61,573 nucleotides of DNA. Source: a virus. Its lineage: Duplodnaviria; Heunggongvirae; Uroviricota; Caudoviricetes. Positions within the stretch are counted from its first letter, which is position 1, and each line of letters starts with the position of its first letter. Shown here in pieces: positions 1 through 49,025 of this stretch. The stretch is from positions 1 to 61,573 of IMG/VR virus record IMGVR_UViG_2778261122_000001, one strand, 5' to 3'. The position numbers and the translations under genes were made by a program. Under the pieces are notes generated by a model that was not told the origin of the DNA, ran no database searches, and was given only the letters and a program-made list of their open reading frames with translations.

Positions 1-1028
1 CAGAAATCACTGAGAACATCCCACGCCTTACGCTGTGTGGTCAGCCAGGCATTACAGGTGATGCGCGGCTCCGTGCCGCCAAAACCATTCGGTACCAACT
101 GGTCGCAGTACTGGCCGATAACGTACAGCGCCCATTTGTCCACATCTGCCGCACCAAGACGTTTCCCCATGCCGTAGCGCGGGTGGGTCAGCATATCCCA
201 CAGACACCAGGCCATGTTGTTGCTGTATGCTGGCTTTAACGTTCCGTCCCAGATACCGCTGTATTGCCGCGTCTGCGGGTTATAGTTCGACGGCACCTGC
301 AGAATACGCCCGCGAAGATGATAATTACGGCTCACCTGCTGGCTGCCGAACTGCTCCGAATCCACCTGTACGCCGACCAGTGCCGTGTTCGGGTAGCACT
401 GTTTCACATCGATGATTTCGGTGTATGACGACCAGAGCGTTTTGTTCTGCAGCTGGTCTGTGGTGCTGTCCGGCGTCATCCTGCGCATCCGGATGTTGAA
501 CGGGCGCGGCGGCAGATTATCCACCACTACCGAGGCCAGATACTGCGAGGTGGTTTTGCCCTTAATGGTGATGTCTTTTTCCGTCACCCAGCCACCGTTA
601 CGCTGTATCTGAACCAGCAGGCGAACTTCCGACGGATTCCTGTCACCCTTTGAGGTGGTTTCCACCAGTGCCTGTACACCGAAGGTAAAGCGCAGACGGT
701 CGATGTTTGCAGACGTAATGGTGCGGGTGATCGGCGTGTCATATTTCACTTCCGTACCCAGCACCGTCTCGGAGCCGGAGGATTCAAACCCCTCCGGCGG
801 TGTCTGCTCCTGCTCACCGGCACGGAACACCACCGTGACACCGGAGATGTTGGTATTCCCCTCAGTGTCCAGCACCGGCGTACTGTTCAGCAGCACGCTT
901 TTTAATCCATCCACCGGACCTTCAATCGGCCCTTCGCTGATGGCATCGATCACACTCAGCAGCTGCGTGGATTTCAGGTTATCCTTCGCTTCGCGCGGGG
1001 TATGCCCCTTACTGCTGCCTTTACCCAT
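1..1028 (-). CDS. J: Tail tip host-specificity protein J, N-terminal part (3' end lies beyond window edge)
   Basis: Minus-strand ATG at 1026..1028 preceded by GGAG; translation MGKGSSKGHTPREAKDNLKS matches remembered lambda J N-terminus; not in ORF track because it runs off the edge. Confidence 0.85.
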   Translation of the reverse strand, partial: MGKGSSKGHTPREAKDNLKSTQLLSVIDAISEGPIEGPVDGLKSVLLNSTPVLDTEGNTNISGVTVVFRAGEQEQTPPEGFESSGSETVLGTEVKYDTPITRTITSANIDRLRFTFGVQALVETTSKGDRNPSEVRLLVQIQRNGGWVTEKDITIKGKTTSQYLASVVVDNLPPRPFNIRMRRMTPDSTTDQLQNKTLWSSYTEIIDVKQCYPNTALVGVQVDSEQFGSQQVSRNYHLRGRILQVPSNYNPQTRQYSGIWDGTLKPAYSNNMAWCLWDMLTHPRYGMGKRLGAADVDKWALYVIGQYCDQLVPNGFGGTEPRITCNAWLTTQRKAWDVLSDF

Positions 1029-1088
1029 TCGTCATGCTCCATAAACGACAAAACCGCCCGGAGGCGGTTTCACATAAAACATTTTGCA

Positions 1089-1760
1089 TCAGCGACCAAT
1101 CACCACAACCTGACCACCGTCCCCTTCGTCTGCCGTGCTGATCTCCTGAAAAACCACCCGCGACCCCACACGCATTTCACCGTACAGAACAGGCAAAACA
1201 TTGCCCTGAGCAACCATGTTATCCAGTGAGGAAAAATAGGTGTTCTGTTTGCCGTTATCCGTTGTCTGTGTACGGGGAGTTCTGGCTTTCGGTGCCAGCA
1301 TCTGCGCCACACCACCGAGCACCATACTGGCACCAAGAGAAAACAGGATGCCGGTCATACCACCGGCCCCAATGGCTGCCCCCCATGCTGCAAGGGTGGC
1401 TCCGGCAGTAAAGAATGATCCGGCAATGGCGGCAGCTCCCAGGACAATCTGGAATACGCCACCTGACTTGGCCCCGGCGACTCTGGGAACAATATGAATC
1501 ACAGCGCCATCAGGCAGAGTCTCATGTAACTGCGCCGTTAATCCGGACGTGCTGACATCCCGTCCGGCAATCCGTACCTGATACCAGCCGTCGCTCAGTT
1601 TCTGACGAAACGCCGGGAGCTGTGTGGCCAGCGCCCGGATAGCTTCAGCCCCCGTTTTCACACGAAGATCGATGCGGCGGCCAAATCGTTGCAAATCCCC
1701 GTAAAGGCAGATGCGTGCCATGCCCGGTGACGCCAGAGGGAGTGTGTGCGTCGCTGCCAT
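1089..1760 (-). CDS. I: Tail assembly protein I
   Basis: 223 aa, same length and near-identical to remembered lambda gpI; position between K and J. Confidence 0.9.
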   Translation of the reverse strand: MAATHTLPLASPGMARICLYGDLQRFGRRIDLRVKTGAEAIRALATQLPAFRQKLSDGWYQVRIAGRDVSTSGLTAQLHETLPDGAVIHIVPRVAGAKSGGVFQIVLGAAAIAGSFFTAGATLAAWGAAIGAGGMTGILFSLGASMVLGGVAQMLAPKARTPRTQTTDNGKQNTYFSSLDNMVAQGNVLPVLYGEMRVGSRVVFQEISTADEGDGGQVVVIGR

Positions 1761-2401
1761 TTGTCGGTATACCTCTCTCGTTTGCTCAGTTGTTCAGGAA
1801 TATGGTGCAGCAGCTCGCCATCACCACAGTAAATGGCGGCATGATTCGGCACCGATGAACCAAAACAGCACAGCAGCACATCGCCCGGTTGTGCTGATGA
1901 CAACGCCACCTGATACAGCCCTGTGGCCTCCAGATTATCCAGATAGAGATTCTGACCTGATTTCCACCAGTCATCATGTCGGTAAAAATCCGGCAAATCG
2001 ATACCTGCAAGATGATAGGCATCGCGGAACAGCGTATAACAGTCTGTCACCCCGTGCTCAAAACGCCGCCCGGTGAGATGCGGCACACAGCGGAACTTAT
2101 GAATCACTCCCCGGCAGACCAGCCACCACGGCAAATCACTCTGCACCTGCAGCCGCCTGTCGGCCTCACTCAGCCAGGGCAGACCACCGGGGTGGCTGTG
2201 GACCAGCGCCACAATCTCACCCTGCATTTCTGCCTGCAGCCAGTCTTCCGGCGACATACGGAAATACGCCTCCGGCTCACCGGAGATATTCACGCAGGGA
2301 AAATATCTTTCCCCCTCCGGCGTTCTCGCCACGAAGCCGCACGACTCCGCTGGCGCGCATCGCCGGGCGTGCGCCAGAATCGCTGATTCTGTCTCTGTCA
2401 T
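1658..2401 (-). CDS. K: Tail assembly protein K (peptidase-like)
   Basis: 247-aa ORF overlapping I as in lambda; HSHP and Cys/His motifs of lambda gpK. Confidence 0.85.
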   Translation of the reverse strand: MTETESAILAHARRCAPAESCGFVARTPEGERYFPCVNISGEPEAYFRMSPEDWLQAEMQGEIVALVHSHPGGLPWLSEADRRLQVQSDLPWWLVCRGVIHKFRCVPHLTGRRFEHGVTDCYTLFRDAYHLAGIDLPDFYRHDDWWKSGQNLYLDNLEATGLYQVALSSAQPGDVLLCCFGSSVPNHAAIYCGDGELLHHIPEQLSKRERYTDKWQRRTHSLWRHRAWHASAFTGICNDLAAASIFV

Positions 2402-2406
2402 GGGAT

Positions 2407-3105
2407 TTACTGCGAAAGTTTGTTAATGGAAAGGAAGCCGCCAAAGTTGCCGACGTTATTGCGGAACTTACAGCCACTCAGGCATTTGCTGCATTTATCC
2501 TTCGTGATATCGGACGTCGGCTGATCATATTCATCCGCGACCGCCGGACCGCTATAACCGCACTCATCGCCGCGATAGGTCCAGGTGCAGGTGTTGGCCA
2601 GCATGATACGTCCCGGAAAAACAGCGCCGTCCGTTTCCGTCGGCGTGGACAGTACAAAAGAGGCACTCACCGCGCTCAGTTCGCTGCACTGCTCAATGCG
2701 CCAACGGCTGATCACCTCCTGCTCCGGATCGGCGTCACTGTTTCCGTTGACGAAGTTCACCGCATCCAGAAAACGGGCGTAAACCTTACGCCGGACCACC
2801 GTTCCGCCGACCAGACTCTGCAGATCTTCCGCCATCCCGGTGACCATACCGTACAGGTTAGAAACCGTCAGCGTGGGGCGCGTACTGGTGCCTTTGCCAT
2901 TCAGTTCAAAACCACTCCCCTGAATGGGATACGGCTGATACTGTCGCCCCTGCCAGGTGACCGGCTCACCTTTTTCGTTCTGCTCATTACAGAAAAAATA
3001 ATGTTCTCCACCGACCTCTGTCAGGTCGATTTCCCAGAGCACCACGCTGGCCGACTGCTCCGCACGGGTGCATTCATTCAGTGTTTCCTGCCGGATATCC
3101 TGCAT
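2407..3105 (-). CDS. L: Minor tail protein L
   Basis: 232 aa, lambda gpL length and sequence; C-terminal Cys cluster. Confidence 0.9.
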   Translation of the reverse strand: MQDIRQETLNECTRAEQSASVVLWEIDLTEVGGEHYFFCNEQNEKGEPVTWQGRQYQPYPIQGSGFELNGKGTSTRPTLTVSNLYGMVTGMAEDLQSLVGGTVVRRKVYARFLDAVNFVNGNSDADPEQEVISRWRIEQCSELSAVSASFVLSTPTETDGAVFPGRIMLANTCTWTYRGDECGYSGPAVADEYDQPTSDITKDKCSKCLSGCKFRNNVGNFGGFLSINKLSQ

Positions 3106-3434
3106 CAGTTCACCACCTGTTCAAACTCTGCGCTGAACTCAACACGCAGCATACTGACCCGCGACGACCATTTTGCGCAGGTCACCTTTATCTGCCGCCA
3201 CTCATAAGGCGGCGTCCACAGGAAGGCTTTCCAGCCCCCGTGCTCAGCCAGAAACGACTCCAGCGCCGTGGCCTCCCAACGGGGAACAGAAAGCGTCACG
3301 CTGTACGTTTTCAGGTCGGCATTCAGCCCGGCAGGCGCTCGCTGGGAATAGCCATCACCAAAGCGCACTTTCCTGACGGAAGGGGCCGAAGCCACATCCA
3401 TACCGGGTTTCACTTTCCAGCGGAAGGTCTTCAT
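3105..3434 (-). CDS. M: Minor tail protein M
   Basis: 109 aa, lambda gpM size and position. Confidence 0.9.
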   Translation of the reverse strand: MKTFRWKVKPGMDVASAPSVRKVRFGDGYSQRAPAGLNADLKTYSVTLSVPRWEATALESFLAEHGGWKAFLWTPPYEWRQIKVTCAKWSSRVSMLRVEFSAEFEQVVN

Positions 3435-5992
3435 CGCCCACCTCCGGAGAACAGACCACCATCACGCATCTGCCCGGTCACAACATCCATTGCCGCCTTA
3501 CGGGCTACGTCATAAACAGCCTTCAGCGCCTGTGGCCCTATCTGACCGTTCGTGCCGTCGTTGTTAATCACCACATGGTTATTCTGCTCAAACGTCCCGG
3601 ACGCCTGCGACCGACTGTCCGCCATGCTGCCCGGTGTACCGACATAACCGCCGGTGGCATAGCCGCGCATCAGCCGGTAAAGATTCCCCACGCCAATCCG
3701 GCTGGTTGCCTCCTTCGTGAAGACAAATTCACCACGGTGAACAATCCCCGCTGGCTCATATTTGCCGCCGGTTCCCGTAAATCCTCCGGTCGCAAAATGG
3801 AGTTTCGCCGCAGCTGCCTGAATGGCTGTACCGCCTGACGCTGATGCGCCACCACTGGCAGCACCGCCAATGGCGCTGCCGATACTCCCGACAATCCCCA
3901 CCATTGCCTGCTTAAGCAGAATTTCTGTCATCATGGACAGCACGGAACGGGTGAAGCTGCGCCAGTTCTGTTCACTGCCGGTCAGCATCGCCGCCATATT
4001 CTGTGCAATACCATCAAAGGTCTGCGTGGCTGCACTTTTAACCTGCGACATACTGTCCGTGGCGCTCTCTTCCCACTCACTCCAGCCTGACCTGAGGCCT
4101 GCCATCCAGCTCCCGCGAAGCAGGTCTTCAGCCGCCCAGGTCTTTTTCTGCTCTGACATGACGTTATTCAGCGCCAGAGGATTATCGCCATACTGTTCCT
4201 TCAGGCGCTGTTCTGTGGCTTCCCGCGCTGCCTGCCGGTCAGTCAGCCCCCGGCTTTTCGCATCAATGGCGGCCCGTTTTGCCCGTTGCTGCTGTGCGAA
4301 TTTATCCGCCTGCTGCGCCAGCGCATTCAGGCGCTCCTGATACGTGACCTTATCGCCAAGTGCAGCCAGCTGGCGTTTGTACTCCAGCGTCTCATCTTTA
4401 TGCGCCAGCAGGGATTTCTCCTGTGCGGACAGCTGGCGACGTTGTGCCGCCTCCTCCAGTACCGCGAACTGACTCTCCGCCTTCCACAAATCCCGGCGCT
4501 GCTGGCTGATTTTCTCATTCGCTCCGGCATGCTTCTCCAGCGTCCGGAGTTCTGCCTGAAGCGTCAGCAGGGCAGCATGAGCACTGTCTTCCTGACGATC
4601 GCCCGCAGACACCTTCACGCCGGACTGTTTCGGCTTTTTCAGCGTCGCTTCATAGTCCTTTTTCGCCGCCGCCATCAGCGTGTTGTAATCTGCCTGCAGG
4701 ATTTTCCCGTCTTTCAGTGCCTTATTCAGTTCTTCCTGACGGGCGGTATATTTCTCCAGCGGCGTCTGCAGGCGTTCGTAAGCCTTCTGCGCCTCTTCGG
4801 TATATTTCAGCCGTGACGCTTCGGTATCGCTCTGCTGCTGCGCATTTTTGTCCTGTTGAGTCTGCTGCTCAGCCTTCTTTCTCGCGGCTTCAAGCGCAAG
4901 ACGGGCCTTTTCACGATCATCCCAGTAACGCGCCCGCGCTTCATCGTTAACAAAATAATCATCCTTGCGCAGACTCCAGATGTCGTCCGCTTTCTTAAAC
5001 GCAGCCTCTGCCTTAATCAGCATCTCCTGCGTGGTATCAGGACGACCAATATCCAGCACCGCATCCCACATGGATTTGAATGCCCGCGCTGTCCTGTCTG
5101 CCCAGGTCTCCAGCGTACCCATGTTCTCTTTCAGGCGGCGGGTCTGGTCATCAAACCCTTTCGTCGCGGCCTCGTTCGCCGCCTGCAATGCCCCGGCTTC
5201 ATCGCCGGAACGCTGCAACTGAGCAACATACGCAATCTGCTCCGCCGTCACGTTATGGAACTGACGTGCCATCGCTGTCAGTCCCGACGTCGGGTCTGTG
5301 GTCAGCTTCCCGAAGGCTTCAGCGACCTTGTCCACCTCCACGCCGGATGCAGAGGAGAAACGCGCCACACTCTGGCTGATCGCCTCAAACTGCTCACCAC
5401 CACGCACACCTGCATTCACCAGCGCCGTCAGTGACTCGCTGGTCTGGTTAAACGTCAGCCCTGCCGCCTGCCCGGCTCTGGACAGGACCAGCATACGATC
5501 TGCCGTCAGACCCGACTGATTGCCGGAAAGGACCAGCGTTTTGTTGAAATCGGACAGGGTTGAGTTGCCCTGATACCAGGCATACGCCAGCGCACCGGTC
5601 GCCACCGCCAGCGAGGTGGCCCCGACCATCGGCAGGGTGATCGCACCGGCAAGCCCTCTGAACATGGGGATCATCCCGCCGAAGGAGTCCTTCACCTGAC
5701 CACCCTGTTGCAGCAGGATCAGCCACGGACTTTGCCCGCCTGCAAGCTGCGTGGCCACGTCGGTGAACTGCGCAGGCAGCATACGCATGGCGGCTTTATA
5801 CTGCCCGACGGAAATCCCCGCTTTCTGTGCAGCCAGTGCCTGTCGGCTCAGCGACTGTTCAACGACTGCCGCTGTTTTTTTCGCATCACTTTCCGTACCG
5901 GAAAAATGACGCCTGACTCTGGCCATCTGCTCGTCAAATCTGGCCGCATCCAGACTTAAATCAACGACCAGATCGCCTACCGGTTCAGCCAT
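3431..5992 (-). CDS. H: Tail tape measure protein H
   Basis: 853 aa, same length as lambda gpH; long coiled-coil middle, Gly-rich C-terminus. Confidence 0.9.
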   Translation of the reverse strand: MAEPVGDLVVDLSLDAARFDEQMARVRRHFSGTESDAKKTAAVVEQSLSRQALAAQKAGISVGQYKAAMRMLPAQFTDVATQLAGGQSPWLILLQQGGQVKDSFGGMIPMFRGLAGAITLPMVGATSLAVATGALAYAWYQGNSTLSDFNKTLVLSGNQSGLTADRMLVLSRAGQAAGLTFNQTSESLTALVNAGVRGGEQFEAISQSVARFSSASGVEVDKVAEAFGKLTTDPTSGLTAMARQFHNVTAEQIAYVAQLQRSGDEAGALQAANEAATKGFDDQTRRLKENMGTLETWADRTARAFKSMWDAVLDIGRPDTTQEMLIKAEAAFKKADDIWSLRKDDYFVNDEARARYWDDREKARLALEAARKKAEQQTQQDKNAQQQSDTEASRLKYTEEAQKAYERLQTPLEKYTARQEELNKALKDGKILQADYNTLMAAAKKDYEATLKKPKQSGVKVSAGDRQEDSAHAALLTLQAELRTLEKHAGANEKISQQRRDLWKAESQFAVLEEAAQRRQLSAQEKSLLAHKDETLEYKRQLAALGDKVTYQERLNALAQQADKFAQQQRAKRAAIDAKSRGLTDRQAAREATEQRLKEQYGDNPLALNNVMSEQKKTWAAEDLLRGSWMAGLRSGWSEWEESATDSMSQVKSAATQTFDGIAQNMAAMLTGSEQNWRSFTRSVLSMMTEILLKQAMVGIVGSIGSAIGGAASGGASASGGTAIQAAAAKLHFATGGFTGTGGKYEPAGIVHRGEFVFTKEATSRIGVGNLYRLMRGYATGGYVGTPGSMADSRSQASGTFEQNNHVVINNDGTNGQIGPQALKAVYDVARKAAMDVVTGQMRDGGLFSGGGR

Positions 5993-6419
5993 ACCGGACT
6001 CCTCCTGCGATCCCTTCTGATACTGTCATCAGCATTACGTCATCCTCCGTCATGTCCGCCACATCCGGGGAAGCGGGGATAACTTCATTCCCGTCCGGGC
6101 CAAAACGAACGCCTCCGGCAAGCCCTGCCGCTTTCTGCATCAGCACATCATCTTCAGGCTCTTCGTCAGCCTCGCGCCGGTTCAGCAGACTGAAATCCAG
6201 CGGATGCATATCCGGATCGCTGAAAAACAGGCTGAGCACGGTGTACGTCAGCCCGGAAAAGTGCATATCCAGCAGAACATCATGAAAATAATGGGTACTG
6301 TAAAAGCGGTGCCAGTCGGCATACTCCGTGGATGACATCCCGGCAAGCATGGCGCGCCAGTCGGGTCGCCCCATCTCACGCGCCAGTTTCAGGGCAAAAC
6401 TCAGCTCACCGTCGAACAC
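5985..6419 (-). CDS. T: Tail assembly chaperone T segment, expressed as G-T fusion by -1 frameshift
   Basis: ORF opens at the slippery site in the -1 frame relative to G; overlaps H start. Confidence 0.8.
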   Translation of the reverse strand: MFDGELSFALKLAREMGRPDWRAMLAGMSSTEYADWHRFYSTHYFHDVLLDMHFSGLTYTVLSLFFSDPDMHPLDFSLLNRREADEEPEDDVLMQKAAGLAGGVRFGPDGNEVIPASPDVADMTEDDVMLMTVSEGIAGGVRYG

Positions 6420-6823
6420 TTTCCCGCAGAAACAGGCTCTGCGGGCCCGGCGTCCTCTGCCTGTTCAGGTGCATCATTCACAACAAACTCAGACATACCG
6501 GACAGACGCATTACCACATTTTCAGCCTGAGCAATTGCCTCTGTGGGCCAGGTGGTAAGCACTTCCTGCTCAATCTGTTTAACGGCTTCATTCATGGACG
6601 GCATCTTTGTCTTCTGCGGATGGCTATGCCACAGGGACATCGCCACCAGAAAAGCACCGGTTCTGACGAGATCTTCCACGCTCACCTGTCGATTGAGACT
6701 GGATCCCGCCTGTTCTGCCTGTCGTTTCAGCAGGGCGAGATGCTCAATACGCTGCAGGGCTGACAGTTCAGAAAGCGTGACGCTCACACCGTTATATTCA
6801 AATGATTCGGTTTTCAGGAACAT
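6401..6823 (-). CDS. G: Tail assembly chaperone G
   Basis: 140 aa, lambda gpG length; slippery site near 3' end. Confidence 0.9.
   Translation of the reverse strand: MFLKTESFEYNGVSVTLSELSALQRIEHLALLKRQAEQAGSSLNRQVSVEDLVRTGAFLVAMSLWHSHPQKTKMPSMNEAVKQIEQEVLTTWPTEAIAQAENVVMRLSGMSEFVVNDAPEQAEDAGPAEPVSAGKCSTVS
6419..6425 (-). other. Programmed -1 ribosomal frameshift slippery heptamer GGGAAAG (G to G-T)
   Basis: Plus strand reads ctttccc, i.e. G_GGA_AAG on the coding strand six codons before the G stop; T frame begins exactly here. Confidence 0.75.
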
Positions 6824-6838
6824 CGCTGACTCTCCGGA

Positions 6839-7579
6839 TTAACTGTCGGTGACGGTGATTTCTGCAACCGCAGCAAGTTCACCATTACCGGATACGACCG
6901 GAATGTTGACCTTGCCTGCAGCAACACCTTTCACGGTGATGGTCATACCACTGACCGACACGGTGGCTTTTGTTTTATCCGCAGACACCGCACGGAAGCT
7001 CTTGTCGGTTGCGCCTTCCGGCTGGAATGCCACGGTCAGCGTGGTGCTCTGCCCTTTCACCACCGAGGTGCTGGCAGGCGTCACGGTCATGCCGGTTGCC
7101 GCTGTTACCGTGCTGCGATCTTCTGCCATCGACGGACGTCCCACGTTGGTGACTTTCACCGTGCGGGTGATCACTTCCTTCGCCGTCACCGCCTTACCGA
7201 TACTGCTGACCCAGCCGCGGAACACATCGACCGTGCCGTTCGGGAAGCGGATTTTATAGGCACGGGTATCACCTTCATTAAACCACGCCAGCAGCGCCTG
7301 CTGCCCCTGCTCTCCGGGCATCCACGCCAGCGTGAAGCTGGTATCTCCGGCGGATTTCTGCCCCTGTCCGGTCGAGGTCCAGTCCGCATCTTCATCATCG
7401 AGATAACTGTCGTCATAGGACTCAGCGGTCAGTTCGCCGGGCGTCAGGTCTTTAACTTTTGCCAGACGCGACCAGTCATTGTCTGAAAGCGGGTTTGCAT
7501 AAGGGTCGCCGCTCCCGTTATAAACCCACAGGGTGGTCCCGGCCCCTTTCACCGGTGCCAGAGGATTTGGTGTTGGCAT
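6839..7579 (-). CDS. V: Major tail tube protein V
   Basis: Start trimmed to MPTPNP; matches remembered lambda gpV including C-terminal Ig-like domain. Confidence 0.9.
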
Positions 7580-7586
7580 ATCGTCC

Positions 7587-7982
7587 TCACATTTCATAGG
7601 TAATGACATAAGTCAGATCGGCTGAACTCCACAGGCCCGCATCATCGTCGCGCCGGTAGTCATAGCCACTGGCCACCATACTGGTGATCAAATCTGACAG
7701 TGCCGGGATATCGCTCATTACCGGATAAATCCGGGACTCCATCCACGAATCCAGCTCTGAATCCGGCACCTGAGCAGGCAGGAAAACTTCAATATGCAGC
7801 TCCGCCTGCCAGGTATCGCTGTCCAGCTCTTCGCCCGTGTATTCAGCGCCGGTGAGATAAACGGCAATTGCCGGAAAATCCGCCTCATCAAAAACAGCGG
7901 GGCGACCATCAAAAAGCGTCGCCCCGGTGTCATGCTTCTCCAGTGCATCCAGTACGGCTGCTCGGAGTTCAGTATGTTTCAT
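7587..7982 (-). CDS. U: Tail terminator protein U
   Basis: 131 aa, lambda gpU size and position. Confidence 0.9.
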
Positions 7983-8557
7983 CGCTTTATTACCATCCTC
8001 AGTTGATGCTGCAGCGCATAGCCCAGCTCTTTCGGAAGACGCTCACGCCGTATCCGCTCAATATTCTGTTTAAACGCCGTGGTCAGCGGCACCGCCATCG
8101 GAATTTTCACCACATCAATGGGGTAACGGTTTTTCCCGGCCACACGCTGCATGACATGCCAGCGGCCATTTTTCAGTTGCTGAATAAACGCGCCGGGAAT
8201 ACGACGGTTTCCCACCACAAGCACACTGCCGCCACCTTTCAGGGCTGAACGCTGCCCCTTTTTACGACGCCTGCGTCGGGACAGGACAACCCGCGCGTTA
8301 CCCAGCCTGATTACGGGCAAATCCCCCCGGTTAACCTTGATTCTGGCCTGCGGATTTTTGACCGTGGCCCTTTTCAGCCTGGCCCTTTCCTTTACCAGTT
8401 TCCGGCGTACCTTTGTCTCACGGGCAACCTGTGACGCCGACTGCGATATCGCGGATGAAGCAACGCGGTTAATGGCCATTGCTGCGGCACCAGGCACCGC
8501 CGTTTTGCTGATACGGCTGAGGTTTTCAACGGCCTGCTCAAGACCTTTTATGGCCAT
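7979..8557 (-). CDS. Z: Tail completion protein Z
   Basis: 192 aa, lambda gpZ size and position. Confidence 0.9.
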   Translation of the reverse strand: MAIKGLEQAVENLSRISKTAVPGAAAMAINRVASSAISQSASQVARETKVRRKLVKERARLKRATVKNPQARIKVNRGDLPVIRLGNARVVLSRRRRRKKGQRSALKGGGSVLVVGNRRIPGAFIQQLKNGRWHVMQRVAGKNRYPIDVVKIPMAVPLTTAFKQNIERIRRERLPKELGYALQHQLRMVIKR

Positions 8558-8632
8558 ACCTCCTCCTTTCAGCGACGACGGTTAACGGCAGGCGGTACGC
8601 CCCGTCCAAGCCAGAGATGACAGCTTCCGCCA

Positions 8633-8923
8633 TCATCCGGCGAAACCCGGTCTATCCAGATAGTTTTCCTCACCGATGGTCAGCGTGTCTCCACGCCGCA
8701 GCTGCCGCACATCATCAGTCCGGACAAACAGGGACGGGCTGGAGCCTTCAACGCGCACACCCTGTCCGGCATAGCTGATATTTTCAGGGTCATCAAAAAC
8801 ACCACGTATCACAGCACCGGACTGCTCACCGGATGTCATGGTGGCTGACGTTCCCATATACCCGCGTATCGTTTCATCAGCGCGGGCAATGGCAGCATCG
8901 AACAGGTTATCGAAATCAGCCAC
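8633..8923 (-). CDS. FII: Head-tail joining protein FII, apparently truncated by a frameshift (possible pseudogene)
   Basis: N-terminal 90 aa match lambda FII; ORF stops at 96 aa while another frame continues with WIDRVSPDDGGSCHLWLGRGVPPAVNRRR to a stop at 8569..8571 next to the Z start. Confidence 0.7.
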   Translation of the reverse strand: MADFDNLFDAAIARADETIRGYMGTSATMTSGEQSGAVIRGVFDDPENISYAGQGVRVEGSSPSLFVRTDDVRQLRRGDTLTIGEENYLDRPGFAG

Positions 8924-8934
8924 AGCGCCTCCCG

Positions 8935-9333
8935 TTATTGCATTCTGGCCAGGCCACGCTCTGTCATTTCGGCTGCCACACCGGCAGAGACACGAAACGC
9001 CGTTCCCGGCAGCACAAATGCCACAGGTTTATCCCTCGTGGCGTGAAGTGCATCAGTATGCAGCGTCACCAGTGCCACGACCGTGACCAGTTCAGCCGTA
9101 TCCTGAATCACGGTATCCGGCTGCGCTGATACCACCTCATTTTCATGCCCGGTCAGCACATTTTCCGGGCTGAGAGGGGTGTCCTGACCGGCAGTGTCAT
9201 CCGTGTCATCAAGCTCCTCTTCCAGCTCTGCCACACGGAGCGCCAGTTCTTCTTTCGTCCCCGTCAGGCTGACATCACGGTTCAGTTGCTCACCCAGCGA
9301 GCGGAGACGGGCAATCAGTTCATCTTTCGTCAT
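8935..9333 (-). CDS. FI: DNA packaging/head assembly protein FI
   Basis: Start trimmed to MTKDELIARLRSLGEQ, matching remembered lambda FI. Confidence 0.85.
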   Translation of the reverse strand: MTKDELIARLRSLGEQLNRDVSLTGTKEELALRVAELEEELDDTDDTAGQDTPLSPENVLTGHENEVVSAQPDTVIQDTAELVTVVALVTLHTDALHATRDKPVAFVLPGTAFRVSAGVAAEMTERGLARMQ

Positions 9334-9374
9334 GGACTCCTCCACAGAGAGAAAATGGCCCCGAAGGGCCATGA

Positions 9375-10400
9375 TTACGCCAGTTGTACGGACACGAATT
9401 CATCAGGGTCAGCCAGCAGCATCAGCGGTGCTGACTGAATCATGGTGAACTCACGCGCCGGATCGCCGGTAGTCACCCAGTTTTTCGGGTAACGGGCAGA
9501 GGCGTTAATGCCTTCGCGCTGTGCGTCCGCATCCTGAATACAGCCATAGGTACGCAGACCGCGTGCCTGAGTGTTCCCCAGCACCATCGTGTTGTCCGGC
9601 AGGAAGTTCTTTTTGACGCCGTTTTCCACGTACTGTCCGGAATACACGACGATGGCCACATCGCCATACATTCCCTTATAAGACACCGCTTTGCCCAGGT
9701 CTTTTACCGCTGTCTCCAGCTCGGAATGAGAGCCGCGACGGGTATCCAGCTTATCCTTGACGGCCTTGAAGGAACGGAACAGCGCCCATCCTTTCGGATC
9801 AAACACGATGATATTCACCACGCCGCTGGCGTTCAGCGCGTAGGCTTCGATATCGTCGGTCGGGTCATACGTGGACTTGTCGCGCTTGCTCCACTCCGTG
9901 CCACCGGACTGTGTGATGTTGTTTGCCGCACTGCGCCCCATATCCACCTCAACCGGATCAAAGGCTTCACCGGTCATGGTGTATTTGCCCTTAAGCACGG
10001 CAGAAACTGCCTGCATCTCTTCGACCTGGGCAATGGCCAGCTCTTCGTCACGCATGTTCTGCATGATGATGCGACGGCGGCGGTAAGCCGGGTCCGCCAG
10101 ATTCTGCGGATCTTCATCCGGCAGGCGACGCAGGGTCATCTGCGGATTCACCTCATGCTTCGGCTTGACATATCCCGGCGTAAATTCAGAGGTGGAGCCG
10201 CCACGGGAACGGATAACCTCACCGGAAACAATCGGCGAAACGTACAGCGCCATGTTTACCAGTCCCGGAATTTGTGAGAGATAGACTTTCTCCGTGGTGA
10301 AGGGATAGCTCTCACGGAAAAAGAGACGCAGAAACAGCGGATCAAACTTAAATTTCTGCTCATTTGCCGCCAGCAGCTGGGCGGTTGTGTACATCGACAT
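9375..10400 (-). CDS. E: Major capsid protein E
   Basis: Start trimmed to MSMYTTAQLLAANEQ, lambda gpE N-terminus; 341 aa. Confidence 0.9.
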   Translation of the reverse strand: MSMYTTAQLLAANEQKFKFDPLFLRLFFRESYPFTTEKVYLSQIPGLVNMALYVSPIVSGEVIRSRGGSTSEFTPGYVKPKHEVNPQMTLRRLPDEDPQNLADPAYRRRRIIMQNMRDEELAIAQVEEMQAVSAVLKGKYTMTGEAFDPVEVDMGRSAANNITQSGGTEWSKRDKSTYDPTDDIEAYALNASGVVNIIVFDPKGWALFRSFKAVKDKLDTRRGSHSELETAVKDLGKAVSYKGMYGDVAIVVYSGQYVENGVKKNFLPDNTMVLGNTQARGLRTYGCIQDADAQREGINASARYPKNWVTTGDPAREFTMIQSAPLMLLADPDEFVSVQLA

Positions 10401-10455
10401 AAAAAAATCCCGTAAAAAAAGCCGCACAGGCGGCCTTTAGTGATGAAGGGTAAAG

Positions 10456-10788
10456 TTAAACGATGCTGATTGCCGTTCCGGCAAACGCGGTCCGTTTTTT
10501 CGTCTCGTCGCTGGCAGCCTCCGGCCAGAGCACATCCTCATAACGGAACGTGCCGGACTTGTAGAACGTCAGCGTGGTGCTGGTCTGGTCAGCAGCAACC
10601 GCAAGAATGCCAACGGCAGCACCGTCGGTGGTGCCATCCCACGCAACCAGCTTACGGGTGGAGGTGTCCAGCATCAGCGGAGTCATTGCAGGCGCTTTCG
10701 CACTCAATCCGCCGGGCGCGGTTGCGGTATGAGCCGGGTCACTGTTGCCCAGCGGCTGGTAATGGGTAAAGGTTTCTTTGCTCGTCAT
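10456..10788 (-). CDS. D: Head decoration protein D
   Basis: Start trimmed to [12 protein letters not shown], lambda gpD; 110 aa. Confidence 0.9.
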
Positions 10789-10797
10789 AAACATCCC

Positions 10798-12097
10798 TTA
10801 CACTGGTGTGTTCAGCAAATCGTTAACGGCATCAGATGCCGGGTTACCTGCAGCCAGTGGTGCCGGTGCACCCTGCATCAGACGATCCAGCGCAGTGTCA
10901 CTGCGCGCCTGTGCACTCTGTGGTGCTGCGGCCAGAATGCGGCGGGCCGTTTCCACGGTCATTCCGGGGGTTTCTGCCAGAACGCGCGCCTGTTCTTCGC
11001 GTCCGTGAGCCTCCTCACAGTTGAGGATCCCCATAATGCGGCTGTTTTCTGCCGCAACCGCTGCGGTGATCTGCGCGTTCACGTCCGGCTGCGCCGCGCT
11101 GGCGTTTTCGCCCTCCGTCGCTTGCACCACGTCAGTAACGTCAGCCTGCGAAGCGGTGGCTGAAACAGTTGTTGATTGAGTCTCTTTGGTCATTCGCCCT
11201 CCTGAGAGACGGGATTTACGTGCATCCAGTGCATCACGCATGACGGTGATCGCATCGGTGCTGTTAACAAGTTCATCAGCCAGTCCGGCATCAATGGCCT
11301 CCTGACCGCTGTACACTGCAGCCTCGGTATCCAGCACAGCCTGCACGGACAGGCCGGTATATGCCGACACCTTCTGCGCAAACATCTGGCGGGTTGCATC
11401 CATCCGGGACTGCAGTGTCTCCCGGACGTCATCCGGAAGATGGCTGTAGGGGTTGCCATCCACCTTATGGCTGCCGCTGTAAATCAGCGTGATTTCCACG
11501 CCCTGTTTCTCCAGCGCAGCACCGTAATTACTGTGAGCCATCATGACGCCGATGGAGCCTGTCCGGGCGGTCTGCGTGACCAGACGCCGGGAGGCGGCGC
11601 TGGCAAGCAGCTGACCTGCACTGCAGTTCATGTCGTTGGCCAGCGCCCATACAGGTTTTATGTCACGCACACGGGCGATGATGTCAGCGCAGTCAAATGC
11701 CCCTGCCACCATTCCACCGGGCGTGTCCATATCGAGCAGAATGCCGTCCACCATCGGGTCACTGGCAGCCTGTTGCAGACGGGCGATAATGCCGTTGTAA
11801 CCGGTCATCCCCGAATAAGGCTGCAGCGCCCGCGTCCGGCTGACCAGCGTACCGGACACCGGCAGCACGGCGATGCCGTTCATGACCTGATAACTGCGGG
11901 CCTGTCGTGGTCCGTCACCATCACCGGCTAACGCCAGCGTCGCGGGTGCCTCCTGGGCAGTCAGGCTGTCGCCGGACACCGCATCCGTCAGGCGGCTGAT
12001 CCCTGGCTGGCCTGCAAGCGCACAAAAGAAAACCCGCGCATAGGCGGGTTCAAGCATCAGCGGCTCATTAAAGGCCATGCTGGCAATATGCGGGAGA

Positions 12098-12117
<20 letters not shown>
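10798..12117 (-). CDS. C: Capsid assembly protease C with in-frame nested scaffold Nu3
   Basis: GTG start after GAGGAGGAG; translation TAELRNLPHIASMAFNEP matches lambda gpC. Confidence 0.85.
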
Positions 12118-15798
<3,681 letters not shown>

Positions 15799-15824
<26 letters not shown>

Positions 15825-16344
15825 TCAGCAACCCCGGTATCAGTTCATCCAGCGCGGCTGCTTTGTTCATGGCTTTGATGATATCCCGTTTCAGGAAATC
15901 AACATGTCGGTTTTCCAGTTCCGGAAAACGCCGCTGCACCGACAGGGGGATCCCGTCGAGAATACTGGCAATTTCACCTGCGATCCGCGACAGCACGAAA
16001 GTACAGAATGCGGTTTCCACCACTTCAGCGGAGTCTCTGGCATTTTTCAGCTCCTGTGCGTCGGCCTGCGCACGCGTAAGTCGATGGCGTTCGTACTCAA
16101 TAGTCCCTGGCTGGAGATCTGTCTCGCTGGCCTGTCGCAGTTCTTCAACCTCCCGGCGCAGCTTTTCGTTCTCAATTTCAGCATCCCTTTCGGCATACCA
16201 TTTTATGACGTCGGCAGAGTCATAAAGCACCTCATTACCCTTCCCACCGCCTCGCAGAACGGGCATTCCCTGCTCCTGCCAGTTCTGAATAGTACGGATA
16301 CTCGCGCCGAAAATGTCAGCCAGCTGCTTTTTGTTGACTTCCAT
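15799..16344 (-). CDS. Nu1: Terminase small subunit Nu1
   Basis: 181 aa; MEVNKKQLADIFGASIRTIQNWQEQG HTH matches lambda Nu1. Confidence 0.9.
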
Positions 16345-16521
16345 TGTTCATTCCACGGACAAAAACAGAGAAAGGAAACGACAGAGGCCAAAAAGCCCGT
16401 TTTCAGCACCTGTCGTTTCCTTTCTTTTCAGGGAGTGTTTTAAATAAAAACATTAAGTTACGGCGAAGAAGAACGGAAACGCCTTAAACCGGAAAATTTT
16501 CATAAATAGCGAAAACCCGCG

Positions 16522-16533
16522 AGGTCGCCGCCC
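16522..16533. other. cosN cohesive-end site (cosB between it and Nu1, cosQ on the other side)
   Basis: Plus strand aggtcgccgccc is the reverse complement of the lambda 12-nt cohesive end GGGCGGCGACCT; flanks match lambda left and right ends. Confidence 0.8.
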
Positions 16534-16681
16534 CGTAACCTGTTGGATCGACGGAAAGGACCCAAAAACGAGAATGATTATCACTTACAGCAAGAATCGA
16601 ATCTGATCTATTATGGTGCTTGCTATTATGTGCCGGCACAAGTGCGTCGTTTACCGTCATTTCACACAGAGGCATCATCAA

Positions 16682-16933
16682 ATGAAAATCAGAAATATTC
16701 TCGCTATCTCCCTTGCAACATCATCCTTCAGTTGCCTGGCATTTAAATCCTCGCCCAATGTGCTACCAGGACCAACGAATCAACTAACTGCGGTAGAAAG
16801 TAAAATTATCGGACATTTTTATGCCCCACACAGTGCATTACCCGGAACAACCATCACAGGGACATGTGACGCCTCCCCCGTCCCGGGATGCACCTGTCCG
16901 TTTTGTACTATGCTGCGTAGCCAAAACCGATAA
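16682..16933 (+). CDS. Hypothetical small secreted protein
   Basis: Start trimmed to MKIRNILAISLATSSFSCLA signal-peptide-like N-terminus; no recognised family. Confidence 0.3.
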   Translation: MKIRNILAISLATSSFSCLAFKSSPNVLPGPTNQLTAVESKIIGHFYAPHSALPGTTITGTCDASPVPGCTCPFCTMLRSQNR

Positions 16934-17296
16934 CATCCGCATTTACCTGGTATTCCATGATGAGTTCACGCAGCGACTGATAGAGGAAGGAAAGATGGTT
17001 AGTAAAAACAAGGCGCATTGCCGCCGCATGCTGCAGGCATTGCAACAGACGAGAGCAGGTATTTTTGAGCAGTTGGAAAACTGCCAGCATACTTTGCCCG
17101 AGTATATCGCCATCTCATCGGAAACCAGTGCAACTCTTATTCATCGGGTTCCACCAGAGAAAAAGAAGAAATGAACAGTGAGGCGTTGTGTGGCATACAA
17201 CGCCTTCTTCCATCATTCCTCGTCAGCCATGACAAAAATATAACCGCTGGCTCTTTCATTTTTCTCCTGCTTCCAGCCCCTCTCTACCTGGAAGCA

Positions 17297-17623
17297 TCAG
17301 GGACGTGACGGCGTAAAGATAAATTGTCTCTTCACTCCCTGACAGGGACGATTCTTTTCAAATCGCCATTTCGCCATGGCCTTCACCACTTCATCACGAA
17401 ACAAATTATGAGGCTCTGAGCGGAGAAAAACGATCCGTGTCACAGTCCCATCAGCACCAATATCGAACTTAACCTCAACCAGTCCCTTGATATAATTTGC
17501 TGCAGCATATTCCGGATATCGTGGATACACCGTCACTAATTGCCGGGGCTCATCAGCTTTTTGCTGCGAGCATCCCACTGCCAGGACAGATAACAGAAAA
17601 AGTAGTAAAAGGCGTCTTTTCAT
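17297..17623 (-). CDS. Lipoprotein with TonB C-terminal-like domain (lambda right-end envelope protein type)
   Basis: Start trimmed to MKRRLLLLFLLSVLAVGCSQQ lipobox; position between bor and cos. Confidence 0.5.
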   Translation of the reverse strand: MKRRLLLLFLLSVLAVGCSQQKADEPRQLVTVYPRYPEYAAANYIKGLVEVKFDIGADGTVTRIVFLRSEPHNLFRDEVVKAMAKWRFEKNRPCQGVKRQFIFTPSRP

Positions 17624-18105
17624 TTTTATTCCTACGGGTCTTATTCTGACAATATATCCTGTGTTCCAGACTGCCACATCACCACATCCTGTGCCATTAT
17701 CTGACTCACATTACATACATCGCATCGGGATACAGTAGTAGCACTTTCTGTAATACAGCTTCCGGTTTCTTCCACCATCGCACCGGGATAAACCCGCGAA
17801 TCATTAACGCGGTAAAAACTCGGTGTGCATCGTTTTTGATTATTCCCGCACACTCACGCAGAAGGAATTCCCCGTCGGGCTACGGTCATGGTTAATGCGG
17901 GAATACGGCGACGATACAGCGCAGCTAAAAGGGTAATGGACGGATAGACCGGTTTATTTCATTCCACAGGATTCTGAGTGTCCCCAACTTCCTCCAATAG
18001 TCTGAGCGTACACCTATATAGTTTTAATTTTCATCAATCCATTTAACTATCGTTTAATTGTTGTCACATAGGATTCTGCCGTTTTTAACAATGCAGGATA
18101 ATAAG

Positions 18106-18399
18106 ATGAAAAAAATGTTGTTTTCTGCCGCTCTGGCAATGCTTATTACAGGATGTGCTCAACAGACGTTTACTGTTGGAAACAAACCGACAGCAGTAAC
18201 ACCAAAGGAAACCATCACCCATCACTTCTTCGTTTCGGGAATTGGACAGGAGAAAACTGTTGATGCAGCCAAAATTTGTGGCAGCGCAGAAAATGTTGTT
18301 AAAACAGAAACCCAGCAAACATTCGTAAATGGATTGCTCGGTTTTATTACTTTAGGCATTTATACTCCGCTGGAAGCGCGTGTGTATTGCTCACAATAA
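18106..18399 (+). CDS. bor: Bor lipoprotein (serum-resistance lysogenic conversion protein)
   Basis: Start trimmed to MKKMLFSAALAMLITGCAQQTFTV; matches remembered lambda Bor; opposite strand to late genes as in lambda. Confidence 0.85.
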   Translation: MKKMLFSAALAMLITGCAQQTFTVGNKPTAVTPKETITHHFFVSGIGQEKTVDAAKICGSAENVVKTETQQTFVNGLLGFITLGIYTPLEARVYCSQ

Positions 18400-18430: not shown

Positions 18431-18907
18431 CTATCTGCACTGCTCATTAATATACTTCTGGGTTCCTTCCAGTTGTTTTTGCATAGTGATCAGCCTCTCT
18501 CTGAGGGTGAAATAATCCCGTTCAGCGGTGTCTGCCAGTCGGGGGGAGGCTGCATTATCCACGCCGGAGGCGGTGGTGGCTTCACGCACTGACTGACAGA
18601 CTGCTTTGATGTGCAACCGACGACGACCAGCGGCAACATCATCACGCAGAGCATCATTTTCAGCTTTCGCATCAGCTAACTCCTTCGTGTATTTAGCATC
18701 GAGTGCATCAGCAGCACGCTGGCGCTGCTGCATGTCAGTAATGGTGGCGGTCGCCTGCTTCAGCTCACTGACTTTTTTATCACGCTGTTCTTTATAGGCG
18801 ATGGCGTTATCACGGTAATGATTGACCGCCCACGACAGGCAGACGATGATGCAGATAACCAGAGCATAAATAATCGCGGCGACTCTGCTCACTGATCTAT
18901 CCCCCAA
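18431..18907 (-). CDS. Rz: Spanin inner-membrane subunit Rz
   Basis: N-terminal TM segment, coiled coil, C-terminus matches lambda Rz. Confidence 0.85.
18490..18672 (-). CDS. Rz1: Spanin outer-membrane lipoprotein Rz1, embedded in Rz
   Basis: 60 aa, lipobox VVVGC, proline-rich, embedded +1 frame. Confidence 0.8.
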
Positions 18908-19422
18908 CAGGCTAATGCGCTTTCCTGGTCACGACGAATAACCTGCCCATAGCAGTTATTTGAACGTATGCGGCAATCGCGCCCACCATCTTTTATCCAC
19001 CAACGAATCGCCTCGCATGCACCCTTACGATCACCGGCATTCAGCCGCTTATAAAACGTCGACGGGAAACACTTACCGGGGCCAATGTTATAGGGACAAA
19101 ATGACGCTATACCCGCTTTCTGTGGTTCGGTCAGAGGTACTTTAATATTGCGCTCCACCCATGCCAGCGCCTTATCACGTTCAATAGCGTTAACCTGGTC
19201 GCATTTTTCCTTCGACAGCTTCATTCCCGGTATGACGGGCTTACCATCCACCATTGTGGCACCACGACAGATGGTCCATATACCGGAACCATCGCGGTAT
19301 GCCGTAGTGTGGTTACCCTCTTTTTCATCCAGAAACTGGTCAAGTATTTGAGGAGCAGACGCGCCTGCAGCAATCAGCGCCAGAACAGCAGCTGACAGGC
19401 CGTATTTGATTTTTGCGCTCAT
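18889..19422 (-). CDS. R: Endolysin, T4-lysozyme-type with N-terminal signal-anchor (SAR-like)
   Basis: 177 aa; hydrophobic N-terminal segment then lysozyme domain; resembles Qin RrrQ. Confidence 0.8.
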
Positions 19423-19477
19423 GGATATTTATCAGGATGCTACCAATGAAAGATACTGGAAAGCCAACTGCAAAAAG

Positions 19478-19792
19478 CTAACAACCCGTAATCGAGTTAT
19501 CAGAACTGTTAATTTTTATGGTATACCGCACCTTTGAACAGGGGCGCGTTTCTGGCAACAGCTCGTCCCCTTCACATAACCCGGCAGCAACATCCAGGAA
19601 GACCTGTCTGATGCTCCTTCTGGCTGCTGCCTCATAAAACTCCAGCGCGGCACCTTCAACACGGTCCAGCGAGATGTCCAGGTCAAAAATTTCACCGTCA
19701 AAGCGTTTTTTGTCCCGTAACGCTAAAGTTACCGTAACTTTATTCTCAAAATTGCGGATCCCTTTCACAATCAGTTCATAGTTTTGAGTCAT
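19478..19792 (-). CDS. Hypothetical protein between holin and endolysin
   Basis: 104-aa ORF tightly packed between S and R; family not confidently recognised. Confidence 0.5.
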   Translation of the reverse strand: MTQNYELIVKGIRNFENKVTVTLALRDKKRFDGEIFDLDISLDRVEGAALEFYEAAARRSIRQVFLDVAAGLCEGDELLPETRPCSKVRYTIKINSSDNSITGC

Positions 19793-19796
19793 TGAA

Positions 19797-20012
19797 TTAC
19801 TCTTCCCGTGCAGCCTTACGCTTGTCTTCTTTAATCTTGAAATAAAGGTTTGTCAGATACGTCAGCAAGCCAAATACCAGACTACCCAGCACACCTATTG
19901 CCGCCCACTGTGAGGGCGTGACTTTATCGAGCAACTGTAAAAACCAGTACCCGGCACTACCTGCTGAGGTGCCATAGGCGACACCCGTTGTTAACTTATC
20001 CATGGATTTCAT
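19797..20012 (-). CDS. S: Class II holin (phage 21 S-type pinholin)
   Basis: 71 aa, two TM segments, MKSMDK dual-start motif, charged C-terminus. Confidence 0.85.
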
Positions 20013-21281: not shown

Positions 21282-21509
21282 TTACTGGCAGCGTCTGAAT
21301 TTATTCCCGTACCCGCCGTTATCCTTCGCCAGACCCGCCAGAACTAACTGAGTCAGTATTAACTGGCACCGGGCTTCGCTTACTCCGGTAGTTCTCGTCA
21401 TCATGCGTGGCGTTACCCACTTGTCAGCAGGTAAGAAATGAAGGACTGCGGCGGCGGTTTCTGTCATATCTTGCTGTTTTAGCATGTCTTTTTCCCTTCT
21501 GGTTAACAT
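21282..21509 (-). CDS. Hypothetical small protein
   Basis: 75-aa ORF upstream of the MTase; no recognised family. Confidence 0.3.
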   Translation of the reverse strand: MLTRREKDMLKQQDMTETAAAVLHFLPADKWVTPRMMTRTTGVSEARCQLILTQLVLAGLAKDNGGYGNKFRRCQ

Positions 21510-21755
21510 GACATACCAATAACTCTTGTCTAAAAAGCCAGCAAGATAAAAAGTCAGTATTCACGACCACCAGCGTGTTTACTGTACTGCACCAAGTTTA
21601 CAGGTACAAAAAAACCGCTCAGCGGCGGGTTTAAGTTGTGTGGCGAAGTAACCATTCTTAACAGCATATTTGATTTTTTACGATTGTAAACGGTTGATTA
21701 TTCATCTCCAATAAAAATAATTGTGTGGGTATGCCCTTAACAATGGATAAGAAAC

Positions 21756-22202
21756 ATGAATAAAATGACTGTACTATTACTTAGCGCAACTATCATTTCA
21801 GGTTGTACTTCTTCCGTACCATTGATAAAGAAAACTCAATCAGGAAAACCTGAGGGGGTTTATCAAAATACGACAAAAGATAAAGTCAAAGATGCCCTTG
21901 TGAATTACTGCAATAGTAGAGGGTTGATAATTTACAACGCGGATAACAGCAGTGTTATATGTGGTAAAGAACTGGAAGGCGGCTCTGCTGTTTTCGGACA
22001 AATGTTAATCGGCAATGCCTATTCAACAACCCCGGTATCAAAAGTCAGATTTACTATCGCTCAAGTTAATAACGATACAAAAGTGTGGGCCGATATGTGG
22101 ATGGAAACTCAAATGGCAATGGGGCAAGTACAACAAATGGCTATAACAGACAACGCAAGCAAAAACACTATCCAACAACGTCTTGATGAGTTAAAACCTT
22201 AA
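21756..22202 (+). CDS. Lipoprotein of unknown function (insertion gene)
   Basis: MNKMTVLLLSATIISGCTSS signal peptide with lipobox; lies in AT-rich insertion. Confidence 0.6.
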   Translation: MNKMTVLLLSATIISGCTSSVPLIKKTQSGKPEGVYQNTTKDKVKDALVNYCNSRGLIIYNADNSSVICGKELEGGSAVFGQMLIGNAYSTTPVSKVRFTIAQVNNDTKVWADMWMETQMAMGQVQQMAITDNASKNTIQQRLDELKP

Positions 22203-47771: not shown

Positions 47772-49025
47772 TTACTGCCCGGCAATAACGATGCCCGTAT
47801 ATTCAGGAACAAGTACAGAGCAACCGTACAGAGTGGTGAAACGAGCAGTGGTTACGCCTTTGATGTGGTCGAAGGCGTAAGACATGATCAGCGTAGCGCC
47901 CTGCTCGGTGGTTGCTGTCATTACCTGTGGACCCTGACCAGTCGGGAACGCCAGTTTGCCGTACATCAGCTCAACAGAACCATCAGCCCAGAACAGGTTA
48001 GCCGGTGCAGCATTCTTGTTGAGAATGGTGATTGCTGCGCTATTTGCCGCGTTAGCATCAACGTTTGCATATGGTCGGCTGGCGACATCCGCGTTGTCAG
48101 GCGGCAGAATTTTCGGGGAGATAGTTACTGTCGTTCCGCTTACTGCCAGAACGCGGAATACCTGCGGCTGCCCGGTGGTATCTTTGGTGATCTGGTGTAC
48201 GGAATTCACCCCTGCAATGGTAAACGCATCGCCAACCTGCAAACCTTCAGCAGATACCGTAATGGTCCCCTGTCGGTTATCAACTGGCATATCGTTAGCA
48301 TCTTTCGCGTCAACTTTGTGCGCAGGTGCTGCTGCCAGCGTCAGGGAAGTTGCTGTACCCTTCGGAACACGACCAGAAATATCGGTCTTGTAGCTATCGA
48401 AGGACGCAACCGGAGGGATCTGCGCTTTTTCGTATGCTGTCAGGGTTGCGCCCTGAGCATAAGCACGGTGACCAAGCTCGCCAGCAAGGTCTTTATAGTT
48501 GAAGGGGTTCCAGAAAGAGCGACGGTTGATACCTTGAGGTACACCAATCGCCGTCATGGTGGCATCAATACCTGCCGCACAGTTCCACAAATCACGGCCC
48601 TGTGAACCTGTGGTTGAGTCAGCCATCGTGATCACGTTAGTAGCACGCTGCGTGACCATGGAAATCAGGTCAGAGTCAATCTGTGCAGCAAGGCGCATAC
48701 CTGCGGCTCGACCAGCTTCAGTTTTATGTTCCGGGTCACGCATTTCACGCGCATCCAGAGTGTACAGAATGTTTTTCGGCTCCTTGAACACAGAAGGAAC
48801 AAGGCGCTGAACCAGTGCTGTTGGCGTTTTGCTGCTGAGATCGAGGCCTTCTTCAATGTTCATGTGGTAATGCTGCGGACGATACAGAACATCACCTGCT
48901 CGCTGCATTGCTGTATCACCGGGACGGAATTTTTTAGCGTTACGGGAAACTACGCAGGCGGCCTCAAAGCCTTCAACGTAGTTTTCGAACATGATTTCAA
49001 GGTCTTTTGCTAATTGGTTAGCCAT
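47772..49025 (-). CDS. Major coat protein (P22-like)
   Basis: 417 aa; position between scaffold and gp4. Confidence 0.8.
   Translation of the reverse strand: MANQLAKDLEIMFENYVEGFEAACVVSRNAKKFRPGDTAMQRAGDVLYRPQHYHMNIEEGLDLSSKTPTALVQRLVPSVFKEPKNILYTLDAREMRDPEHKTEAGRAAGMRLAAQIDSDLISMVTQRATNVITMADSTTGSQGRDLWNCAAGIDATMTAIGVPQGINRRSFWNPFNYKDLAGELGHRAYAQGATLTAYEKAQIPPVASFDSYKTDISGRVPKGTATSLTLAAAPAHKVDAKDANDMPVDNRQGTITVSAEGLQVGDAFTIAGVNSVHQITKDTTGQPQVFRVLAVSGTTVTISPKILPPDNADVASRPYANVDANAANSAAITILNKNAAPANLFWADGSVELMYGKLAFPTGQGPQVMTATTEQGATLIMSYAFDHIKGVTTARFTTLYGCSVLVPEYTGIVIAGQ

Follow-up and report, generated by a model that had tools for sequence, protein, structure and literature searches.

Introduction

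The terminase recognition site cos of phage lambda is the best-described relative of the site considered here. The terminase small subunit (TerS) bound on cosB anchors the large subunit (TerL), which nicks cosN at positions 12 bp apart; cosN together with cosB starts packaging, and cosQ together with cosN ends it (PMC4669245, PMC9026076). Integration host factor (IHF) at the I1 region bends the DNA so that the TerS dimer docks on the binding sites R3 and R2 (PMC4669245, PMC9026076). Both the 7-bp cosQ and the CG pairs flanking cosN are highly conserved or conserved, respectively (PMC4669245). The extent of R3 and the weight of its bp 55-63 have been defined, and the cosN-R3 distance was found to be critical, a 3-bp deletion being already severely defective (PMC9026076). 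Packaging specificity is set by R3 and the TerS recognition helix (PMC4669245, PMC9026076). Here, we describe a cos site located in the contig IMGVR_UViG_2778261122_000001, a draft-assembly contig of 61,573 bp (hereafter the window), which very probably is the cos of a prophage that is lambda-like (Lambdavirus-type) and has the packaging specificity of lambda.

Other described cos systems differ in layout. N15 (NC_001901) has a simple cosB, with a lone R3, no IHF site and the TerS start at bp 89. The cos sites of EcCICFT073-type phage-inducible chromosomal islands (PICIs) carry cosQ and cosN, nearly identical to those of lambda and at a lambda-like spacing, but lack the R sequences of cosB and have rppA next to cos in place of terS (PMC9026076).

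A lambda-type cos on the minus strand

The lambda 12-base cohesive end, GGGCGGCGACCT, occurs in the window as a single exact copy on the minus strand (16533..16522). The lambda left arm (Nu1 to J, 16.5 kb) starts precisely at bp 1 of this cohesive end, and lambda bp 1-16532 aligns with window 16533..1 as one collinear block, without rearrangement, at 96.8% identity. When the lambda cos junction was rebuilt (48446..48502 followed by 1..255) and compared with window 16589..16280, 293 of 312 positions (93.9%) were identical. The whole cos occupies about 16345-16563, and lambda similarity stops at 16589. The same 12-mer is annotated as a "cos site" in phage DE3 and as a single-stranded 5' extension in phi80.

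Could the 12-mer be a chance match without a packaging role? Nothing except the shortness of the motif speaks for this, and its probability is practically nil. In dinucleotide-preserving shuffles, the exact 12-mer was observed at a mean of 0.03 per window, with any match in 3 of 100 shuffles. This low frequency refutes the chance reading, as do the surroundings of the copy found, which match lambda at 94% over 312 bp and at 96.8% over 16.5 kb. The 2-mismatch matches to the 12-mer at 7503 and 32564 are at chance level (3 found vs 3.64 expected).

The subsites follow in the order cosQ, cosN, R3, I1, inverted R2 and R1, with orientation and cosN-R3 spacing as in lambda, and are followed by the two terminase genes:

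16564..16589, minus strand: last lambda right-end similarity, upstream of cosQ; aligns to lambda 48446-48472 with several changes; the alignments with lambda-like phages end at 16589
16557..16563, minus strand: cosQ heptamer GGGTCCT, which signals the end of packaging and lies upstream of the top-strand nick at the lambda distance of 23 bp
16536..16556, minus strand: cosQ-cosN spacer (I2 region), of lambda length, with 3 substitutions (lambda 48485 G>T, 48486 T>C and 48492 G>A)
16520..16535, minus strand: cosN, an exact match composed of GGGCGGCGACCT at 16533..16522 and the CG dinucleotides 16535-16534 and 16521-16520
16469..16484, minus strand: R3, the critical TerS (Nu1) binding site in cosB; lambda bp 50-65, 16 of 16 positions identical
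16443..16460, minus strand: I1, the IHF-consensus region between R3 and R2; lambda 74-91
16411..16426, plus strand: R2 of cosB, inverted relative to R3 and R1; identical to lambda 108-123, in the same orientation
16368..16383, minus strand: R1 of cosB, an accessory TerS site; identical to lambda 152-167 and located at 151-166 from the left end here
15799..16344, minus strand: Nu1, terminase small subunit, 181 aa
13899..15824, minus strand: A, terminase large subunit, 641 aa, ATPase and cosN-nicking endonuclease

The cosQ heptamer matches lambda 48473-48479, which we take to be the coordinates of lambda cosQ, exactly, and no indel separates it from cosN. All three substitutions in the following spacer are shared with the Escherichia phage PhiR47_2. 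The cosN-to-R3 distance equals that of lambda, with 0 indels across lambda 1-133. From cosQ through R2, in fact, there are 0 insertions or deletions relative to lambda, which matters because the published cosN-R3 distance is critical; the only indels are one of 1 bp upstream of cosQ and a 1-bp deletion at lambda 137, which brings R1 1 bp nearer to R2 and is common to PhiR47_2, Stx1_9793 and phi80. At I1, the two overlapping IHF-consensus matches of lambda (74-91) are kept base for base, suggesting that IHF would bind there; the substitutions at lambda 71 and 73 fall just outside I1 and are shared with PhiR47_2 and the Stx1 phage.

A separate observation concerns the cosQ-cosN spacer. The G>A change at the lambda 48492 position, also present in PhiR47_2, puts 16548-16536 (minus strand) 2 mismatches from the IHF consensus, and the same scan, with a cut-off of 2 mismatches, listed no IHF-consensus site at the corresponding position of the lambda spacer.

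A preliminary description of this DNA had placed a lambda cohesive end at 16345-16540 and had taken it to give exact packaging termini. Its 12-nt core shows 0 mismatches when aligned to lambda. The proposed range does hold cosB and cosN but leaves out cosQ (16557-16563), and the site is on the minus strand. As for the termini, the identity of the core to that of lambda is borne out, and the ends themselves are a prediction from this identity rather than a measurement. With lambda as the model, a minus-strand nick is predicted between 16534 and 16533, and a plus-strand nick between 16521 and 16522.

Terminase genes and predicted packaging specificity

The cognate terminase genes adjoining cos are intact. 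Nu1, whose ATG at window 16344 corresponds to position 190 from the left end, is 98.4% identical to lambda Nu1, with the substitutions A45D, A75T and L132I. It matches Pfam Phage_Nu1 (E=2.9e-100) and the PDB entries 6hn7 and 1j9i (lambda TerS). Its recognition helix (residues 17-24, RTIQNWQE, including E24) and wing (residues 31-39, RGGGKGNEV) are exactly those of lambda. The product of A (gpA) is full length, is 99.5% identical to lambda gpA with 3 conservative substitutions, and contains the Pfam GpA_ATPase and GpA_nuclease domains. R3 bp 55-63 and helix residues 17-24 distinguish lambda specificity from that of phage 21 and of N15. Because both R3 and the recognition helix are identical to those of lambda, the predicted packaging specificity is that of lambda and not that of N15. 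A specificity distinct from that of phage 21 is likewise suggested by the lambda identity, rather than by direct comparison with 21.

The PICI type of cos is relevant at this point. Since PICI cosQ and cosN are so close to those of lambda, the site could in principle belong to a PICI or another cos-bearing satellite that hijacks the terminase of a helper. This explanation is highly improbable and is refuted by the surroundings of cosN: R3, R2 and R1 are present and lambda-identical, and they are followed by Nu1, A and a full lambda head/tail module.

Comparison with other cos systems

An alignment of six cos sequences (lambda, the window, PhiR47_2, Stx1_9793, phi80 and N15) revealed that cosQ is invariant and that the cohesive end deviates only in N15, where bp 9 and 12 differ in agreement with published data. 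The window differs from lambda by 14 substitutions or indels between lambda 48463 and 137, of which 12 recur in at least one of the other four phages; none of the 14 hits a defined subsite. Among the compared phages, the only changes within cos unique to the window are single bases at lambda 48472 and 100.

Relative to lambda itself (J02459, bp 48473-48502 and 1-190), cosQ, the 12-nt end, the flanking CG pairs, R3, the I1 core, R2 and R1 are identical. Upstream of cosN, the window departs from lambda by 10 substitutions or indels, of which 3 lie in the cosQ-cosN spacer and the other 7 upstream of cosQ; the cosB spacers contain 7 changes, including the R2-R1 deletion. In addition, the right arm of the window is unrelated to the lambda p78/p79 region past 56 bp.

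A close relative in this region is PhiR47_2 (PV340567.1), which is 98.3% identical over 601 bp (cos and bor-side DNA), has almost all of the differences of the window from lambda, and remains 95.5-96.6% identical from Rz via cos into J. However, PhiR47_2 shows no relationship to the window in the early region, the immunity region or the integrase, and its FII gene is intact. PhiR47_2 is regarded as a phage by its GenBank record alone (complete phage genome, host E. coli C); a literature search found no paper describing the PhiR phage series.

In phi80 (JX871397), the same 12-nt end and cosQ, a cosB with three R sites and the 1-bp R2-R1 deletion are found, but many changes occur near R3 and in the R2/R1 spacers, where the window matches lambda. 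A simple cos of the N15 type was considered and rejected on the basis of the alignment and the N15 annotation, the window having the complex lambda layout.

Position of cos in the prophage map

The cos site lies within a lambda-like prophage whose genes are arranged in the order int-xis, cI, cII, O, RusA, Q, lysis genes, bor, cos, Nu1, A and onward to J:

34345-34390: att core, corresponding to the 3' 46 nt of the E. coli thrW tRNA-Thr by direct alignment to K-12 thrW
33168-34331, plus strand: integrase (Pfam Phage_integrase)
29666-30358: cI-like repressor
28764-29315: cII-like activator
27478-28419: O-like replication protein
26291-26671: RusA
24094-24474: Q-like antiterminator
about 21400-24100: low-GC island
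20079-21131, minus strand: N6/N4 DNA methyltransferase, 350 aa, between the Q region and the lysis cassette
18431-20012: holin, endolysin and Rz
18103-18399, plus strand: bor (Pfam Lambda_Bor, E=1.7e-30)
16590..18102: non-lambda DNA between cos and bor, about 1.5 kb, without a lambda match and 98% identical to PhiR47_2
17297-17677, minus strand: putative lipoprotein gene with a TonB_C domain (Pfam TonB_C, E=1.1e-12)
running off the window at base 1: J, first 342 codons

From this gene order, the location of int and att, and the truncation of J at base 1, it follows that cos has an internal position in the prophage map, as it has in integrated lambda, lying about 17.8 kb within the element. The circularly permuted prophage arrangement that the preliminary description had proposed is therefore supported by int and att at 33.2-34.4 kb, J leaving the window at base 1 and the gene order of integrated lambda. 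Its placement of the cohesive end between Nu1 (15799-16344, minus strand) and bor is also correct, whereas the lambda-like ends that it had described on both sides of cos are unequal: the left-end similarity extends over 16.5 kb, and that of the right end gives out after 56 bp, with some 1.5 kb of non-lambda DNA then leading up to bor. Lambda similarity resumes in the bor region, where lambda 45967-46809 aligns to window 18891-18052. The small ORFs of the intervening segment (16590-18102), including a signal-peptide-like ORF at 16683-16933, have no family matches.

The int-xis-att module (window 32900-34391) is 99.7% identical to that of Shigella phage SfIV, and this similarity ends at 34391, thus marking the end of the prophage. 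The 99.7% identity holds for all three of the serotype-converting Shigella phages SfIV, SfV and SfII. Since the att core lacks the 5' half of thrW, the boundary between the two prophages resembles a hybrid site of the attP type. No tRNA was detected by ARAGORN anywhere in the window, nor did a permissive Rfam scan return anything for 34250-34500, and E. coli genomes searched with the att junction gave no informative annotation.

Integrity of the prophage

Is this cos still in use? The lambda head/tail genes W to I are all full length except for the head-tail joining gene:

8569-8923, minus strand: FII, with a +1 frameshift caused by an extra A at about 8663 (...GAAAACT[A]TCTGG...)

The FII product is 96 aa instead of 117 aa. 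Lambda, PhiR47_2 and E. coli 95-3322, which is the closest complete E. coli genome, all lack the extra A, and none of the complete E. coli genomes gave a 100% match to the FII region. Either the mutation is real and inactivating, or the draft assembly is in error here. If it is real, attachment of tails by this copy is probably impossible. FII acts after DNA packaging, and the use of cos therefore need not be affected by a defect in this gene.

These data raise the explanation that an intact cos resides in a defective prophage that yields no infectious virions alone, cos being a fossil or being used only with a helper or through complementation between prophages. We regard this as unlikely, although clearly less so than the chance or PICI explanations. 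In addition to the split FII gene, it draws support from the abundance of lambda-type cos copies. Of 5,426 complete E. coli genomes, 4,591 (~85%) have matches to the 271-bp cos region, at 8,737 places in total and up to 8 per genome; many of these places lie under genes annotated nohA or nohD, which are the Nu1 homologues in cryptic K-12 prophages. Given this frequency, the presence of such a cos is expected, not surprising. The same region matches 88 phage records, including lambda and DE3, and an identical 271-bp cos, base for base, is found in a second draft assembly. Moreover, defective lambdoid prophages of O157 were shown to be packaged and transferred through complementation (PMC2669165). 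On the other hand, the remaining morphogenetic genes and both terminase genes are intact, at 94-100% identity to lambda (86.5% for G), and the frameshift, being a single-base change in a draft contig, may stem from a sequencing error. The explanation also bears on the viability of the phage and leaves the identity of the site unchanged.

The reading of the site as the cos of a lambda-like prophage with lambda packaging specificity must nevertheless be weighed against several points. Because of the FII frameshift, infectious particles may not arise from this copy. Single-base errors are possible, as the window is an entire draft-assembly contig. The distal att site (attR), which bears on excision competence and on genome length (lambda packaging requires about 38-51 kb), lies beyond the window. 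Finally, cleavage and the virion termini are deduced by analogy, from the sequence identity to lambda. The analysis does establish the sequence, order, orientation and spacing of the subsites; it also shows that the cognate terminase genes are intact and that cos lies within the prophage map. The site is thus a real lambda-type cos and probably a working substrate.

A P22/Sf6-like prophage, apparently in tandem

The remainder of the window, 34391-61573, belongs to another prophage, of the headful-packaging P22/Sf6 type and in the same orientation as the lambda-like one:

35018-36676: tailspike
36877-37755: Bro-N antirepressor (ant)
37757-37823: sar antisense RNA
50028-52226: portal
52228-53643: Terminase_3 large subunit
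53640-54065: Sf6-type terminase small subunit
57818-58441: Q

DNA-transfer proteins, coat, lysis genes and nin genes matching lambda are also present. The possibility that the 35-54 kb region consists of host genes was rejected, since the region is a P22/Sf6-like prophage and the window is without ordinary host genes. The contig is wholly prophage DNA; one of its ends interrupts J, and the other lies within the second prophage. The two prophages appear to sit in tandem at thrW, joined at the hybrid att core.

This arrangement invites speculation on a further route of transfer. In-situ headful packaging by the upstream P22-like prophage, resembling lateral transduction, or other lambdoid prophages of the cell using the lambda-specific cos, could move the cos prophage. 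Such a route is rather improbable, less probable than the defective-prophage explanation. If it does operate, headfuls starting from the pac region (~54 kb) and proceeding in the direction of P22-type packaging would cross the att junction and move the cos prophage even with a real FII defect.

Accessory ORFs were noted in both prophages. In the immI-like region (38579-40027, plus strand) of the P22-like prophage, an ORF of the YafO toxin family (39163-39582) lies between two ORFs that lack family matches; one of the two shows a very weak PtuB-like match (E=0.005). The low-GC island of the lambda-like prophage, located between Q and the lysis genes, contains an unclassified ORF of 420 aa (22430-23692), which gave 0 matches in Pfam, PHROGs, PADLOC and NCBIfam. 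Its predicted structure (pLDDT 83.6, confident) gave 0 matches with Foldseek against the PDB. A total of 1,196 homologues were found; the best 120 of these 1,196 are mostly about 420 aa long and 55-88% identical, and come from Escherichia, Klebsiella, Vibrio, Pseudomonas, Nitrosomonas, cyanobacteria and others. An invariant R357-x4-H362 motif is present, which we take to fit the HEPN signature, and the P. aeruginosa homologue adjoins a TIR-domain protein. This ORF is a candidate defence gene.

Biological implications

The likely course of events at this cos can be outlined by analogy with lambda. Upon induction, the prophage would excise at the thrW att sites and replicate as a rolling circle, producing concatemers. 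Staggered nicking by the terminase would then generate 12-nt 5' overhangs, with the left virion end predicted at 16533. The terminase would keep hold of the cosB-bearing end, and translocation would proceed from Nu1 through A to J, toward lower window coordinates, until packaging finishes at the next cos, where cosQ and cosN would be needed.

Overall, this is a known element in a known arrangement, and nothing about it is novel. Its value lies in annotation: the predicted virion ends, the packaging direction and the lambda-type specificity can be assigned to one E. coli prophage on a draft contig. Beyond its own prophage, the cos could serve, or compete for, any terminase of lambda specificity in the cell.
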